The notes under the pieces were generated by a model. That model ran no database searches. It was not told the DNA's origin and saw only the letters and a list, made by a program, of their open reading frames with translations. The position numbers were made by a program, and so were the translations under genes. Positions 1 through 4,408 of a stretch of DNA of 4,408 nucleotides are shown here, piece by piece. The DNA lies in IMG/VR virus record IMGVR_UViG_3300006879_000538, positions 1 to 4,408 of that record. One strand, 5' to 3'. The DNA is from a virus. Lineage: Duplodnaviria > Heunggongvirae > Uroviricota > Caudoviricetes. Position 1 is the stretch's first letter. Each line of letters opens with the position of its first letter.

Positions 1-1166
1 GTACAGGACGCAGATTCGTTGTATCTGATATCAATGTTTGATGACGACAAAGCCCCCGGGGATTTCCCAATCGTCAGTTCCTGAATATCGTAATAGCGTG
101 CATTCCCGCCACTCACCACGCCAAGATTCGCCGGTGAGTAAATGCGACTTAAAAGGACCGAATCACCAATCATCAGACTATTGATATAGTCGGAAATAGC
201 CTGCTGGATCTGCTGCCCTATCTGTGAGGTATAACCCGTAAAAACTTTTAATTTAATCCGGGCATAAACAGGTACATCACTGGAACGCGAGAATTTGATT
301 ACATGGGGATTGCCGTATTTATCCGGAACCGTAACGGATGTTGTACCGTGAGTGGCTGTCCCCTGGCCTTTATTCCCTCTGATAGCCTGAGCAATATCCG
401 TCACATCACCGCCATCCACAATTACAGCAACAGAGTGTGGCGGTAACCCATTACCGTCCTCCGAACCAGTATCGTTTTCATAGAGTTTGTGGCGGGTTAC
501 ACCGGTAACATTAGAAACAGCACCATCCAGTGCTTCAAATGGGGTTATTGATGGCAACGCAACACTTTGCGACTGGCGGATACGTAACTCAGCATCAGTT
601 TCTGCCGGAGAGCCAACAGTAGCCGCAGCAGGATTAGTTACCGAAACCCAGCCACGGGTTGGCGTATTAATTTCAGTGATAGTTCCAGCCAGCGCCGCCA
701 CTGCACCACTGACGGAACATGTTGCGGTCGCCATCACTGTACCATCCACGCCGACCACCACTGAAGCAGGCAAACGCCATATCACATTATTACTGTCTTT
801 CACGCTGCCATTAATGATGGTTGTTCCGGCAGTTCCTGTAAGAAGCAAATCAACCGTAGAGTTCGTCGCGCCTTTACGTGAAATACCATTTATTTTCACG
901 TTACTGGTCAGTGCAGCCCCATAGCCGGTTGCCGGTGAAAAACAGTTGTAGACAGTTATCGCCGTATTATTGGCATCATGAATCGCCAGCGCCATCAGAG
1001 CCACCATCTGGCCGTCTTTGCTGTCCGGTTCGAGGTAGGCATCACTGCCATAAATCTGCTGAAAATAGCTAATCAGGGTGCTGAGTATCGTCTGATAATC
1101 AGGCGCACTGATCCCCTCCGCGGTTACCTTTGCAGATAAACCGAGAGAATCAAGGTTCAGAGCCAT
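1..1166 (-). CDS. Baseplate J-like protein (Mu gp47 / P2 gpJ family), 3' end truncated by window edge
   Basis: ATG at 1166..1164 overlaps the stop of the upstream gene (TAATG); GGAGG lies 4-5 nt upstream. I hand-translated the frame from 1166 toward position 1 (about 388 codons, beginning MALNLDSLGLSAKVTAEGISAPDYQTILSTLISYFQQIYG) and found no stop. Family call is from position directly after V-like and GP46-like genes plus general sequence character, not from a search. Confidence 0.6.
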   Translation of the reverse strand, partial: MALNLDSLGLSAKVTAEGISAPDYQTILSTLISYFQQIYGSDAYLEPDSKDGQMVALMALAIHDANNTAITVYNCFSPATGYGAALTSNVKINGISRKGATNSTVDLLLTGTAGTTIINGSVKDSNNVIWRLPASVVVGVDGTVMATATCSVSGAVAALAGTITEINTPTRGWVSVTNPAAATVGSPAETDAELRIRQSQSVALPSITPFEALDGAVSNVTGVTRHKLYENDTGSEDGNGLPPHSVAVIVDGGDVTDIAQAIRGNKGQGTATHGTTSVTVPDKYGNPHVIKFSRSSDVPVYARIKLKVFTGYTSQIGQQIQQAISDYINSLMIGDSVLLSRIYSPANLGVVSGGNARYYDIQELTIGKSPGALSSSNIDIRYNESASC

Positions 1167-1519
1167 TACGCCTCCGATGTAACAGTCGTTATTCCATAAA
1201 GAGTGTCGATTTCAGCGGAAAACATGACACGTCGGGTCGTGGTATCCAGCGTCGTATTGAAAGAGAGGATTGATTTAACGCCCCGCGTTTCGAGGATGCG
1301 CTTACGGATCGCCAGGTTGTAGGTTTCCGGCTTCTGCTTACCGAGTACGGACTGGATCCACGGAGTCCCCTCGGTGGTGTCGAGAAACCATTGCCCATAC
1401 CACAATTCGAATCGCGTTTTTACCGCCTGCGCCACGGCCTCCGGTGAGTTAATCAGCCAGGTGTCATCACCGCTGCCAAAGGTGTAATCGCCATCGGCGT
1501 CTTCACGTCTGTATCGCAT
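1166..1519 (-). CDS. Phage GP46-family small baseplate protein (gp25/gpW-like wedge component), 117 aa
   Basis: ORF in the track (MRYRREDADGDYTFGSGDDTWLINSPEAV...). Its ATG overlaps the stop of the V-like gene (ATGA at 1517..1520) and its stop overlaps the J-like start. Size and position between V-like and J-like genes match the Mu gp45-gp46-gp47 arrangement. Confidence 0.65.
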   Translation of the reverse strand: MRYRREDADGDYTFGSGDDTWLINSPEAVAQAVKTRFELWYGQWFLDTTEGTPWIQSVLGKQKPETYNLAIRKRILETRGVKSILSFNTTLDTTTRRVMFSAEIDTLYGITTVTSEA

Positions 1520-2271
1520 CAGTTTACTCCGTCGGTATTGCTTCCACCGCGCTGAACACCACCATGAGTGTGCGTATCATCGATTGGCTTGCCGTTAGCC
1601 TTCACGCTACCCAAAAACTCAACAGCACCAGTAATTTTTGAAGCCACACCAGAAACAACAGACCCCACCATGCCCCCCATCCAGGTTAACAGGCCATGAA
1701 TGGTTACTTTCTCAGAAAAATCAGCCAGAGGGGCAACCACATCAAGGCCCCCCGGAGCAACAATTTTAATTTTCCCGGTATCAGGATTAAGCTCAAAATA
1801 GGTGCTGCCATCGTCACTACGCAACTGTGTGGCACTGGTATTAATACCGCTAATCTTCCTAGCCTGCGACTGGGGACCGACAATACAAAACGCATCCGAT
1901 AAATCATGCATTCTGTCATCAACAGGCTCCTGTATCCCGCCGTTCTGCCACCAGAAATCAATACAACGATCGGCAAAAACGACAAGACACTCATCCCCGG
2001 CTTTTACCGGAAAAGTCAACGTACAGCCTCCGCCGCGCGGAAATACCACCGGCACATCCACCAGTAGCGGGTAATTTTTGGTTACGCGGTTGCCGTCGTT
2101 GTCGGTTTCAACCGAACGAATAGCAGGCTGCACAACCGCCGTCACCGCGTCAGGATCGAATGACTGAACGATGCCAGGCAAAGCGACGCGGATCTGGTTC
2201 TTTGTGGTTTCCCGCTCGGATTTGAATGTTTCGGCAAGGTCGCCGCTGCGGGTCTGGTCAGATACTGCCAT
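1519..2271 (-). CDS. Baseplate assembly protein V-like / tail spike (Mu gp45-like), 250 aa
   Basis: ORF in the track. The segment PLLVDVPVVFPRGGGCTLTFPVKAGDECLVVFADRCIDFWWQNGG resembles the N-terminal OB-fold region of gpV-family spike proteins, and the C-terminal part is Gly-rich. GGAG lies about 7 nt upstream of the ATG at 2271. Synteny with the GP46-like and J-like genes supports the call. Confidence 0.7.
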   Translation of the reverse strand: MAVSDQTRSGDLAETFKSERETTKNQIRVALPGIVQSFDPDAVTAVVQPAIRSVETDNDGNRVTKNYPLLVDVPVVFPRGGGCTLTFPVKAGDECLVVFADRCIDFWWQNGGIQEPVDDRMHDLSDAFCIVGPQSQARKISGINTSATQLRSDDGSTYFELNPDTGKIKIVAPGGLDVVAPLADFSEKVTIHGLLTWMGGMVGSVVSGVASKITGAVEFLGSVKANGKPIDDTHTHGGVQRGGSNTDGVN

Positions 2272-2290
2272 TTGTTAGGCTCCAGAAAGC

Positions 2291-2314
2291 AAAAAACCCG
2301 CCGGATGGCGGGTT
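2291..2314 (-). terminator. Rho-independent terminator for minus-strand transcription, downstream of the HEPN gene
   Basis: Inverted repeat aacccgcc (2295-2302), loop ggat, ggcgggtt (2307-2314) on the plus strand. On the minus strand the GC-rich stem is followed directly by a T6 run (complement of a-run 2291-2296). It sits 18 nt after the HEPN stop (2332) and about 20 nt before the V-like start (2271). Confidence 0.6.
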
Positions 2315-2331
2315 CGTAAATAAACTTTTTG

Positions 2332-2712
2332 CTAGGCTACTTGGGATTTCATTTCTGCTATTTTGTCCAACATCTTGTTCACCACTGCAATAGATGAACT
2401 TGCTTCAGTTTGCAAAATAGTCTCTGTTAGATCGTAGTCCGCGCGCTTACGCTTCATTTTTTGCTGTTTGAGAACTGCCCCCAACTGGATAAGAGACATT
2501 AACTCATAAGGTTCATCCTTCCGCCTTGCATCCGAAATAAGATATTGAACAACTCCATCATGTGTTGTCGGCGGGCAACACGTCAAAAGGCCACATGTTT
2601 CATGGTAGAACGCATAGTATGCCCGTGAAATAGCACTTCTGAAACCAGACTCAATACCAGTGTCTAAACATGCACGGGATGCGTCAATGAACTCTTTTCC
2701 TTGGATACTCAT
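2332..2712 (-). CDS. HEPN-domain protein, putative RNase toxin/effector, 126 aa
   Basis: ORF in the track. Residues 29-58 (SRAYYAFYHETCGLLTCCPPTTHDGVVQYL) match the pattern I recall for classical HEPN proteins: an R-x6-H motif inside an RAYYA.FH helix followed by a conserved H.GV segment. The motif R30-H37 is encoded at 2602..2625 (RC = CGGGCATACTATGCGTTCTACCAT). Start ATG overlaps the stop of the upstream gene by 4 nt (ATGA). Confidence 0.7.
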   Translation of the reverse strand: MSIQGKEFIDASRACLDTGIESGFRSAISRAYYAFYHETCGLLTCCPPTTHDGVVQYLISDARRKDEPYELMSLIQLGAVLKQQKMKRKRADYDLTETILQTEASSSIAVVNKMLDKIAEMKSQVA

Positions 2713-3482
2713 ATCGTGAAGTGAATCTCCTGCCGATTACGCCCGCGGAACCAGGCCGTCACATTCTTTCCAGCGAAGATCTCATTCATTGCAATTTCAG
2801 TAGCAACGTCAATATCCATATCGGAAAGCATATCGGCATCCTCACATAAAACATCACAAACTATGCCAGCATCCCCATCCGGGCTTGTGACATAGTCATG
2901 AGAAATAGCTAAAACACCATAATTCTTAGCGACATTAGTAATTGTTCTGGAAAGAAGATTTATCTCATTCGTGCTTAAATCAGTCACACTTATGAATGTA
3001 TCTAATGCCCGTTTTTTTTCCATGATATCTGACTCCATGCTTTCTCGCTCGCTCTCACTTCCGATCATAGACAGAGCTTTTCGAGCAAAAAAGAGTGATA
3101 GTTCACCATCGCCGTCAGCATAGGCTGCATTCCTTGCTCGTATGCACAAAGCAAGGCTGGTAATTTCCCGAGCTAACCTCACAGCCTCTTCTCGGTACAA
3201 TTCATACTGTCCAGTATGACTGAGGTAAGAAAGATAATTTCTGGCTACTGTTTCGTCACGGTATGCAACTGCCTCCTGAAAAAAACCGACAGCTTCAACA
3301 TGTTGATGCGCAGCTCCATAAGCCAGAGCCAACACCATCAACTTAACTGGCTCATCAGGGATTTTGCCTGCTTCAGAGACAACTCGCTTTAGCGTAAAAG
3401 CATCCAGTTGCTGCCCTTCATCAATACGTGAAGTAAGCATCTCAAGCGTTTCATTCAGTTTGCTATACAGTGCAAGTGACAT
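2709..3482 (-). CDS. Hypothetical protein, 257 aa, operon partner of the HEPN gene (candidate antitoxin/sensor)
   Basis: ORF in the track. AAGGAGG lies 6 nt upstream of the ATG at 3482..3480. The N-terminal half (about residues 45-140) looks alpha-helical and possibly TPR-like (LALAYGAAHQHVEAVGFFQEAVAY...YLSYLSHTGQYELYREEAV). The C-terminal region is acidic (residues 202-229, DGDAGIVCDVLCEDADMLSDMDIDVATE). I see no Walker A motif and no clear GS...DxD nucleotidyltransferase signature. Confidence 0.65.
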   Translation of the reverse strand: MSLALYSKLNETLEMLTSRIDEGQQLDAFTLKRVVSEAGKIPDEPVKLMVLALAYGAAHQHVEAVGFFQEAVAYRDETVARNYLSYLSHTGQYELYREEAVRLAREITSLALCIRARNAAYADGDGELSLFFARKALSMIGSESERESMESDIMEKKRALDTFISVTDLSTNEINLLSRTITNVAKNYGVLAISHDYVTSPDGDAGIVCDVLCEDADMLSDMDIDVATEIAMNEIFAGKNVTAWFRGRNRQEIHFTI

Positions 3483-3533
3483 TAATCATCCTCCTTAACG
3501 GAGGAATTTATCATTGGAAGGCATCATCAACAA
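3483..3533 (-). promoter_or_regulatory. Putative sigma70-type promoter, palindromic element and SD for the two-gene operon
   Basis: Read on the minus strand: candidate -35 TTGTTG (3533..3528), 17-nt spacer, TG-extended -10 TAAATT (3510..3505), then the perfect palindrome TCCTCC-GTTAA-GGAGGA (3505..3489) whose downstream arm is the SD, then the ATG at 3482. Promoter hexamers are a modest match to consensus. Confidence 0.35.
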
Positions 3534-3680
3534 CCTGTTGTTTTATTCATTAATCCATATTCTAGACTAATGCTTTGCTCTTTTCTAAGGAGAGAAAGGA
3601 GAACTGGTTAAAATTTCTTACTCTCACCCAGCCACTTTTTTACAAGGGAAAGATTCGATGATTTTCGGCGCATCCATGAC

Positions 3681-4157
3681 TTAATAACCTTGAGATTTAG
3701 CAACGCGAATACCGGCCGCCATCCCATTGAAATCCCATGCGTTTTTATGGGCAATAGGATTACGTGTGTTGAAGGCATAGCGCTGGCCCATTTTCCATGC
3801 TGTATCGCTAACAGACTTATCTTGAGAGAGGTTTACCCACTCCTTTATGCCTTTGTAAACATAGGACTTACAATCATCCGTAGTTCCTTTCCGATTGGTG
3901 TAGGCATCCAGATCTTCGCATTCTTGAAAGGAGTTGCTGACTATATCCGCGAAATCATCAATGGTCATGGCGAATCTGCGACCATTCATAGCGAAAAAAG
4001 GAGTAGCAGAGGCGTAATGTTGCCACTGCGTAAACTTTTGCTGATCCATTAAATCAACAGCCATTTTTTCATACTTCCCAGGAGCGGATAATCCCGACAT
4101 CGGAACAAGTAAACTTATTGCAATAAAAATGGCTTTCTTATTCAATCTTATCCCCAC
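3681..4157 (-). CDS. Hypothetical secreted/periplasmic protein with N-terminal signal peptide (start codon uncertain: GTG 4157 or TTG 4145; track ATG 4226 less likely)
   Basis: The track ORF (3681..4226) contains an internal signal-peptide-like segment, LNKKAIFIAISLLVPMSGLSA-PGK, which only makes sense at an N-terminus. GTG at 4157..4155 lies 10 nt after AAGGAG (4173..4168); TTG at 4145..4143 is the alternative. The predicted mature protein has two Cys (QECEDL..., ...DDCKSY), compatible with a periplasmic disulfide. I recognise no family. Confidence 0.55.
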   Translation of the reverse strand: MGIRLNKKAIFIAISLLVPMSGLSAPGKYEKMAVDLMDQQKFTQWQHYASATPFFAMNGRRFAMTIDDFADIVSNSFQECEDLDAYTNRKGTTDDCKSYVYKGIKEWVNLSQDKSVSDTAWKMGQRYAFNTRNPIAHKNAWDFNGMAAGIRVAKSQGY

Positions 4158-4408
4158 CGATTCATTGCTCCTTGACTTTGAAGATCCGCCGCGCCACGCG
4201 CTTGGCACATCATATCCATGTACCACGCCTGGCCCCTTGTGTCACCAGTGTACATAATCCCGCGCACAATATAAACGCCATCCGTTGCGATGCTGGCAGG
4301 TTGTGCTGTGGTGCCGCTGAGCGTGATATTACCGTCCGTGTTCTGGTCGGTGATCTGACCACCAGCCATAGCGATATCGTTGTTCGACAACGCGGCGCGA
4401 TATACAGA
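4148..4408 (-). CDS. C-terminal fragment of an upstream phage tail/baseplate gene (possibly the baseplate hub, Mu gp44 / P2 gpD-like, by synteny), 5' end beyond window
   Basis: The minus-strand frame is open from the window edge (4408) to TAA at 4150..4148 (…SNNDIAMAGGQITDQNTDGNITLSGTTAQPASIATDGVYIVRGIMYTGDTRGQAWYMDMMCQARG…). The track's TTG start at 4390 is probably internal. Functional call rests only on position upstream of the V-like gene. Confidence 0.4.
   Translation of the reverse strand, partial: SVYRAALSNNDIAMAGGQITDQNTDGNITLSGTTAQPASIATDGVYIVRGIMYTGDTRGQAWYMDMMCQARGAADLQSQGAMNRWG

Follow-up and report, generated by a model that had tools for sequence, protein, structure and literature searches.

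Introduction

In HEPN domains, core helix 3 ends with an Rx4-6H motif, and helix 2 bears an Ex3[KR] motif (PMC3710099). [quoted passage not shown] The type VII HEPN-MNT modules combine an RX4HXY motif, with its catalytic histidine and an AMPylated tyrosine, with an MNT protein bearing GSX10DXD (PMC11586414). In addition, a zinc ion near the HEPN active site of Csx1 and a metal-dependent HEPN protein have been reported (PMC3710099; PMC11586414).

The locus analyzed here lies in a window of 4,408 nucleotides (the whole stretch of DNA under study; IMG/VR record IMGVR_UViG_3300006879_000538, positions 1 to 4,408), all genes of which are on the minus strand and which forms part of the baseplate region in an E. 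coli prophage of the Mu/SEN34-like myovirus type. Besides a baseplate J gene, a wedge/sheath-initiator-like gene of 117 aa and a PF18352-type spike gene (1519-2271), it contains a gene for a 126-aa HEPN protein with a conspicuous cysteine cluster and the gene of a 257-aa partner.

Among the described systems, the PDB entries 9xbd/9xbc (125-131 aa) are the best profile match of this protein, with which they share SRAYYAMF, the insert histidine and R-x3-D-Y-D-L; they differ in having tyrosine in place of H37, a longer connector, S/L at positions 40/46 and no cysteine in the segment. The entries 9xbd and 9xbc differ from each other by a Y to F exchange at the equivalent of Y93 (R-x3-D-Y), an exchange that evidently served to probe the function of this tyrosine in a HEPN-T relative. 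Our literature searches found no publication for 9xbd/9xbc and nothing for UPF0332 in combination with HEPN. AF0298 (PDB 2hsb, UPF0332, of the Pfam PF05168 clade) is about 16% identical to the 126-aa protein and has K/Y at the positions of C40/C46 and T at R30, whereas the window protein has the shortest connector; the partner of the window HEPN gene is not a nucleotidyltransferase, unlike in the AF0298-type comparison. The HepT/MntA pairs of Shewanella, Aphanizomenon and Legionella are likewise different, since R-KRAD-Y-D-L without histidine and a TPR plus ferredoxin-like partner are found here. Neither RX4HXY nor an adjacent nucleotidyltransferase of the GSX10DXD/Pol-beta fold is present, and a type VII HEPN-MNT toxin was rejected on the absence of this motif and of an MNT partner. 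The anti-phage toxins AbiV and RnlA/LsoA are larger, multi-domain or single-gene, and have other partners (RnlB/LsoB); no sequence similarity was detected between them and the window proteins.

With respect to its genomic position, the pair resembles the P2/P4 hotspots and the lambdoid morons in being cargo between conserved late genes, in its patchy occurrence and in its replacement by other cargo, and like morons it has a candidate promoter and terminator of its own. The site differs from the named hotspots, as it separates baseplate genes from the PF18352-type spike gene in a Mu/SEN34-like myovirus and its cargo is uncharacterised.

Results

The Cysteine Segment and Its Composition

The minus-strand translation of positions 2560-2601 reads ETCGLLTCCPPTTH and corresponds to residues 38-51 of the 126-aa ORF (Table 1), directly preceded by H37. 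The cysteines of the protein are found at positions 15, 40, 45 and 46, exactly as the initial annotation had given them, with two prolines after C46 and C15 lying upstream. According to the modeled secondary structure, the connector LTCCPPTT comprises eight residues and H51 begins the next helix.

The presence of three of the four cysteines within seven residues has a probability of 0.021 under the protein's own composition and of 0.002 against a background of 1.1% cysteine, both values being uncorrected for other features that could have been flagged. By composition the clustering is thus mildly unusual for a single protein. The stronger evidence that the feature is real is its conservation in the alignments rather than its composition.

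Table 1. Coordinates of the cassette and of its main sequence features in the window.
Feature	Position	Strand	Remark
126-aa ORF, AF0298/UPF0332-type (HEPN-T) HEPN protein	2332..2712	-	Second gene of the cassette
257-aa partner gene	2709..3482	-	Stop codon overlaps the HEPN start codon (ATGA)
C15 codon, helix 1	2668..2670	-	Outside the cysteine cluster
E21-x3-R25 = Ex3[KR], start of core helix 2	2638..2652	-	Both residues in 49/49; about 152/154 in the wider family
R30-AYYAFY-H37, helix-2 signature SRxYYxxYH	2602..2625	-	R30 and H37 in 49/49; model helix 21-42
Flagged segment, residues 38-51	2560..2601	-	C-terminal turns of core helix 2 (to 42), connector LTCCPPTT, H51
C40 codon, TGT	2593..2595	-	Invariant in the short-loop subfamily
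C45 and C46 codons	2575..2580	-	C45 (2578-2580) variable; C46 (2575-2577) subfamily-invariant, abuts invariant P47
H51 codon	2560..2562	-	Conserved 'alternative' His from the helix 2-helix 3 insert; predicted catalytic His
R88-K-R-A-D92-Y93, site equivalent to Rx4-6H	2434..2451	-	End of core helix 3, model helix 71-93
Terminator-like G+C-rich hairpin with T-run	2294..2315	-	Between HEPN stop and spike start; consensus-level scan only
Promoter-like site TAGAAA-17-TAGAAT	3559..3587	-	About 77 nt upstream of the partner gene; 9/12 consensus match

HEPN Identity and Motif Positions

Two sets of homologs were compared. The close set consists of 49 homolog representatives, 40 of which form the clade of the 126-aa protein (47-100% identity), the rest including a sister clade of 131-aa proteins. 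For the wider family an exhaustive profile search yielded 3546 representatives at E<=1e-3, the best 150 of which were aligned (154 sequences in total).

The model predicts helices at residues 5-17, 21-42, (51-59, 62-66), 71-93 and 101-125 of the protein. It has the up-down bundle of four helices that characterizes the HEPN superfamily, in which an insert separates core helix 2 from core helix 3. In the 49 homologs and in the wider family alike, little or no variation is seen at E21, R25, S29, R30, Y32, Y33, H37, H51, R88, D92 and Y93. Among these, R88, D92 and Y93 are present in 49/49 close homologs and in 153-154 of the 154 wider representatives, and align with R..SDY of 9xbd and 2hsb. The canonical Rx4-6H motif itself is absent, as R88 is invariant but no histidine is found in R88-KRAD-Y93. 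H51 is present in 45/49 close homologs and 150/154 sequences of the wider family and aligns with the histidine of SKTH in 2hsb. The combination of a lost motif histidine, a retained arginine (R88, 49/49) and an alternative histidine in the insert (H51) is the pattern of the AF0298 type.

Profile comparisons point in the same direction. The profile of the 49 homologs matches 9xbd/9xbc, annotated as 'HEPN domain-containing protein', with an E-value of 1.5e-7, and AF0298/2hsb with 0.003. The 126-aa protein itself gave no match among the Pfam, NCBIfam and PADLOC models; the gathering score of PF05168 is not reached, with no match of the protein to this model even at E<=10, and only 9/49 homologs match it weakly (best E-value 0.005). 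In PHROGs the protein is placed in phrog_5176, of unknown function. Judged by its fold and motif pattern, the 126-aa protein is a member of the AF0298-type HEPN-T group. The motif mapping, the model helices and the matches to 9xbd/9xbc and 2hsb hence bear out the initial annotation in calling the protein HEPN, but the pair R30-x6-H37, which it took for the HEPN motif, had been mis-assigned, being part of helix 2 (21-42) with the canonical site at R88-KRAD-Y93. Its placement of the cysteines beside the active site is right in part. As H51 closes the flagged segment, a probable catalytic residue does lie near them in the sequence, yet this residue is H51 and not H37.

Conservation of the Cysteines

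C40 and C46 each occur in 40/49 homolog representatives, and these are all 40/40 members of the 126-aa clade, whose identity goes down to 47%. Codons 40 and 46 may be either TGT or TGC in genes that are 61-73% identical in DNA, and the conservation therefore acts at the protein level. The flanking positions 39, 41, 42, 44 and 45 vary freely, unlike 40 and 46. Invariant hydrophobic positions are nonetheless normal in this clade, given that the 28/126 invariant columns include four leucines (L43, L58, L81 and L95). The other two cysteines behave differently. C45 is found in 19/49 representatives, all of them within the clade (19/40, which thereby have the CC doublet), and is replaced by H/N/A/S/Y/Q/M/K in homologs; C15 is present in 42/49 close homologs, and the wider family has L52/C31/I15 at that position. 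Judged from these alignments, C45 and C15 are unconstrained. The alignment of homologs proposed as a check of the cluster thus separates its members, with C40 and C46 invariant in the subfamily and C45 and C15 variable. A cysteine at position 45 (LTC-x-P; 2578-2580) recurs at moderate frequency in short- and long-loop clades and is fixed in neither (e.g., L057, L060, L061, L069, L074, L078, L091 and L096).

Outside the subfamily other residues take these places. The 131-aa sister clade has I/M at position 40 and L/I/M at 46, and leucine is the commonest residue of the wider family at positions 15, 40 and 46. About a quarter of the wider family has K/R at position 40, so that the burial of this site may be incomplete. 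Of the 154 sequences in the alignment, 9 have both C40 and C46, 4 have C40 without C46, and 7 have C46 without C40. The suggestion that the cluster is a lineage-specific feature is confirmed insofar as C40/C46 are confined to one subfamily, with Leu/Ile/Met in the relatives.

Loop Length and Residue Choice

The distance from H37 to H51 was used to class 233 distinct sequences. Most family members have a spacing of 17-22. The window protein belongs to the shortest common class, with a spacing of 14 (n=58), in which position 40 is cysteine in 53 sequences and the residue before the proline is cysteine in 54 and glycine in 2. At a spacing of 13 (n=3), position 40 is M, A or E and the pre-proline residue is A in 2 and F in 1, and at 17 and longer the two positions are I/L/M/K/R and L/V/I, respectively. 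The pre-proline residue is thus small (C, G, A) with a short loop and a bulky aliphatic with a long loop. As its size tracks the length of the loop, the pattern is that expected of a steric packing position and not of a metal ligand. For metal ligands one would instead expect replacement by His, Asp or Glu, or the disappearance of the site as a whole.

As read from these spacings, the subfamily is distinguished by a shortened helix 2-helix 3 connector in which nothing has been inserted. The idea that the cluster had been inserted after the motif is therefore not upheld; there are no added residues, and the spacing of 14 is that of the shortest common class.

The Partner Protein

The partner consists of a TPR-like helical repeat (3-137), a long helix (143-167) and an alpha-beta-beta-alpha-beta, ferredoxin-like domain (171-248). 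An MNT antitoxin was considered and rejected for this protein, as no nucleotidyltransferase match was found and its fold is TPR plus ferredoxin-like. The partner of the sister clade also has 257 aa and is 24% identical to that of the window, and a Yersinia partner (L013) is homologous to it with a probability of 97%. The window partner has a clade-specific cysteine pair of its own, C209/C213 (about 2844-2858, minus strand), within ICDVxCxD on a predicted beta-strand; this pair is missing from the partners of the sister clade and of several lineages that retain C40/C46 in their HEPN protein. A plus-strand hairpin at 3489-3505 (TCCTCC-TTAAC-GGAGGA) overlaps the Shine-Dalgarno region AAGGAGGA of the minus-strand partner gene and could either sequester the ribosome binding site in the mRNA or be a coincidence.

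More distant relatives have other neighbors. In Pseudomonas (L014:3208-4378 and L015:3190-4378), HEPN-T relatives of 128 aa have overlapping upstream ORFs of 268-274 aa that show no detectable similarity to the window partner and adjoin a lambda-K-like (JAB/NlpC) tail gene; for the upstream partner in L014, the comparison with the window partner gave a BLASTP E-value of 0.59 and an hhalign probability of 0.15%, i.e., no detectable homology. These loci may hold an analogous cassette whose partner has been replaced or has diverged strongly. Archaeal relatives of 145-155 aa (Bathyarchaeia L016, L017, L018 and L020; Nitrosopumilus L019) keep SRAYYSLYHE and R-N-x-ADYD and have a much longer helix 2-helix 3 insert. 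In the Bathyarchaeia loci the relative is preceded by two ORFs, conserved as a pair and each of roughly 185-220 aa, an arrangement that may represent a different, conserved three-gene module.

A Mobile Cassette in the Baseplate Region

A total of 158 IMG/VR stretches encode a relative, and 79 loci were kept and examined. An upstream ORF of 223-298 aa is present in 75/79 of them, and at least three of the other four lie at contig ends. All bacterial genome loci examined likewise have an upstream ORF of partner size, and the homolog lists of the HEPN protein and of the partner share contigs. The cassette is situated directly upstream of the spike gene in 50/79 loci. A Dickeya prophage has it at another location, and in Serratia it is flanked by the lysis and terminase genes, which amounts to at least three different prophage positions. 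At least 80% of positions 2200-3700 is present in 2/5426 complete E. coli genomes; the flanks are present in 240, of which 238 have the flanks only. That prophages which are otherwise collinear either carry the cassette or lack it, with different cargo in its place, is the behavior of a moron or hotspot. Taken together with the overlap of the two genes, these data show a mobile prophage cassette of two genes, of which the HEPN gene is the second and is translationally coupled to the first, and the pair of TPR/ferredoxin-like and HEPN-T genes is a prophage moron. The promoter evidence is weak, since the candidate site matches only 9/12 consensus positions and promoter-like sites in the region do not exceed the number in shuffled sequence.

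The region 2272-3680 is a cargo hotspot, at which a YafO-family toxin gene or a DUF2335 gene is found in other E. coli prophages, and related phages have an unrelated 170-aa ORF at this site (vB_EcoM-689R2, L021:2832-3344). An ORF of 181 aa (3681-4226, minus strand) has a homolog in only 5/79 related viral loci and no family match in Pfam, NCBIfam, PADLOC or PHROGs; its identification with the cargo of the related phages was rejected for lack of similarity. The Trabulsiella homolog begins with MNRRNILLFLGLFIPLSGIAAPGKYEK, which is signal-peptide-like, and the true start of the 181-aa ORF is therefore probably located downstream of the listed GTG. This ORF would seem to be the second accessory gene in the hotspot.

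In PADLOC-DB v2 neither cassette protein matches any model at E<=1, and the DefensePredictor supplements consulted list neither WP_047087920 nor WP_062898041. A known defence system was accordingly rejected, based on the absence of a PADLOC match, the negative DefensePredictor supplements and the placement in PHROGs families of unknown function.

Discussion

In this study, we propose that the cysteines of this HEPN protein belong to a short-loop variant of the HEPN-T fold, in which they serve packing, and that the protein is part of a two-gene RNase moron; for this account as a whole we estimate a probability of about 0.6. The connector of the subfamily follows the pattern H37-x2-C-x5-C-P-P-T-T-H51, with C40 in the last turn of helix 2 and C46 in front of Pro47. 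Purifying selection keeps both residues in the short-loop subfamily, where their small hydrophobic side chains would let the shortened turn pack against helix 2. This packing would in turn fix the CPPTTH turn such that H51 is presented, and H51, contributed by the insert, would complete the active site together with R88. Sequence comparison indicates that the role of C40/C46 is most likely structural, by steric packing. A point against simple packing is that no A, S or V variants occur among 53 distinct sequences, outlying lineages excepted; as the alignments stand, the invariance of C40/C46 over 47-100% identity exceeds what simple packing needs.

Alternatively, H37, C40, C46 and H51 (H-x2-C-x5-C-x4-H) could chelate Zn2+ or another metal in the short-loop subfamily, either as a staple for the short loop or as a regulatory switch that sequesters the catalytic H51. 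In favor of this are the spacing, which is similar to that of a compact HCCH knuckle, and the invariance of the four residues within the subfamily. The model places H37 and C40 (i,i+3) on the same face of a helix, with C46 and H51 following in a short turn, and precedents exist in the zinc near the HEPN active site of Csx1 and in a metal-dependent HEPN (PMC3710099; PMC11586414). Yet H37 and H51 are also invariant in all relatives that lack the two cysteines, and their role is therefore independent of these. Moreover, the cysteines are exchanged for Leu/Ile/Met/Gly/Ala and not for His/Asp/Glu, and among the 154 sequences there are lineages with only C40 (4) or only C46 (7), so that we regard a metal site as quite unlikely. 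The same Leu/Ile replacement pattern speaks against a redox switch, in which a reversible disulfide between C40 and C46, or between the vicinal C45 and C46, would shift the H51 loop and couple the RNase to oxidative stress. Two invariant cysteines six residues apart beside the probable catalytic histidine and the CC doublet in 19/40 clade members would suit such a switch, but the 126-aa protein reads as cytoplasmic, without a signal peptide, and C45 is freely replaced, so that no vicinal C45-C46 disulfide is conserved; we consider this explanation highly improbable. For the metal- or redox-sensitive site raised in the initial annotation there is hence no positive evidence, as only two of the cysteines are conserved and relatives that keep the invariant polar residues have Leu/Ile/Met instead. 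That such a H37/C40/C46/H51 metal or redox site in the short loop directly engages the alternative catalytic H51 and gates the HEPN RNase, within an undescribed two-gene anti-phage or toxin-antitoxin module that has a TPR plus ferredoxin-like partner in place of a nucleotidyltransferase, appears highly unlikely.

The cysteines could also contact the TPR/ferredoxin-like partner, possibly in a shared four-cysteine site with C209 and C213, an idea that we regard as quite unlikely. It would account for the conservation of C209/C213 at 90% or more in the same clade, their absence from the partner of the sister clade and the fact that no locus pairs a cysteine-less HEPN with a CC partner. C209, V211 and C213, however, alternate on the beta-strand as buried residues do, and three lineages keep C40/C46 in the HEPN protein beside partners with N/T, V/T or L/T at 209/213 (L040/L041, L043/L049, L050 and Serratia L008). 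Since C40/C46 persist with these cysteine-less partners, an obligatory intermolecular four-cysteine site was rejected; C40/C46 by themselves may still have a non-covalent role at the interface. Finally, the cysteines may be a neutral, lineage-specific accident of ancestry, in line with their limitation to one subfamily and with the frequency of cysteine at the hydrophobic positions 15, 34 and 39 of the family. Here the 40/40 invariance down to 47% identity, with synonymous codon turnover and free variation at 39, 41, 42, 44 and 45, argues for selection, and we consider neutrality unlikely. Steric packing in the short loop thus remains our preferred reading.

As for the cassette, its architecture, with overlapping genes (ATGA) and pairing in 75/79 loci, would suit a toxin-antitoxin module. 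By analogy with other HEPN modules, the HEPN protein may work as a dimeric RNase, either a toxin or an effector, which the TPR protein would hold or trigger as neutralizer and/or sensor. The pair would then constitute a toxin-antitoxin-like or abortive-infection moron, comparable to HEPN-MNT, RnlAB/LsoAB and AbiV.

In summary, the cysteine feature is a subfamily-specific variant and the cassette is an uncharacterised variant of the HEPN two-gene modules. As a signature of the short-loop subfamily of AF0298-type HEPN proteins the cysteine pair is of modest interest, and C40, C46, H51, R88 and Y93 offer a simple handle for mutagenesis. If the metal or redox reading were true, zinc availability or the oxidative state would gate a prophage HEPN RNase. 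Of greater use is the context. The conserved pairing of TPR/ferredoxin-like and HEPN-T proteins is widespread in enterobacterial myovirus prophages, where it sits in a cargo hotspot beside the spike gene and matches no catalogued defence or toxin-antitoxin system. If it is a defence or toxin-antitoxin module, it would show how an HEPN-T protein can be controlled without the canonical histidine and without a nucleotidyltransferase.
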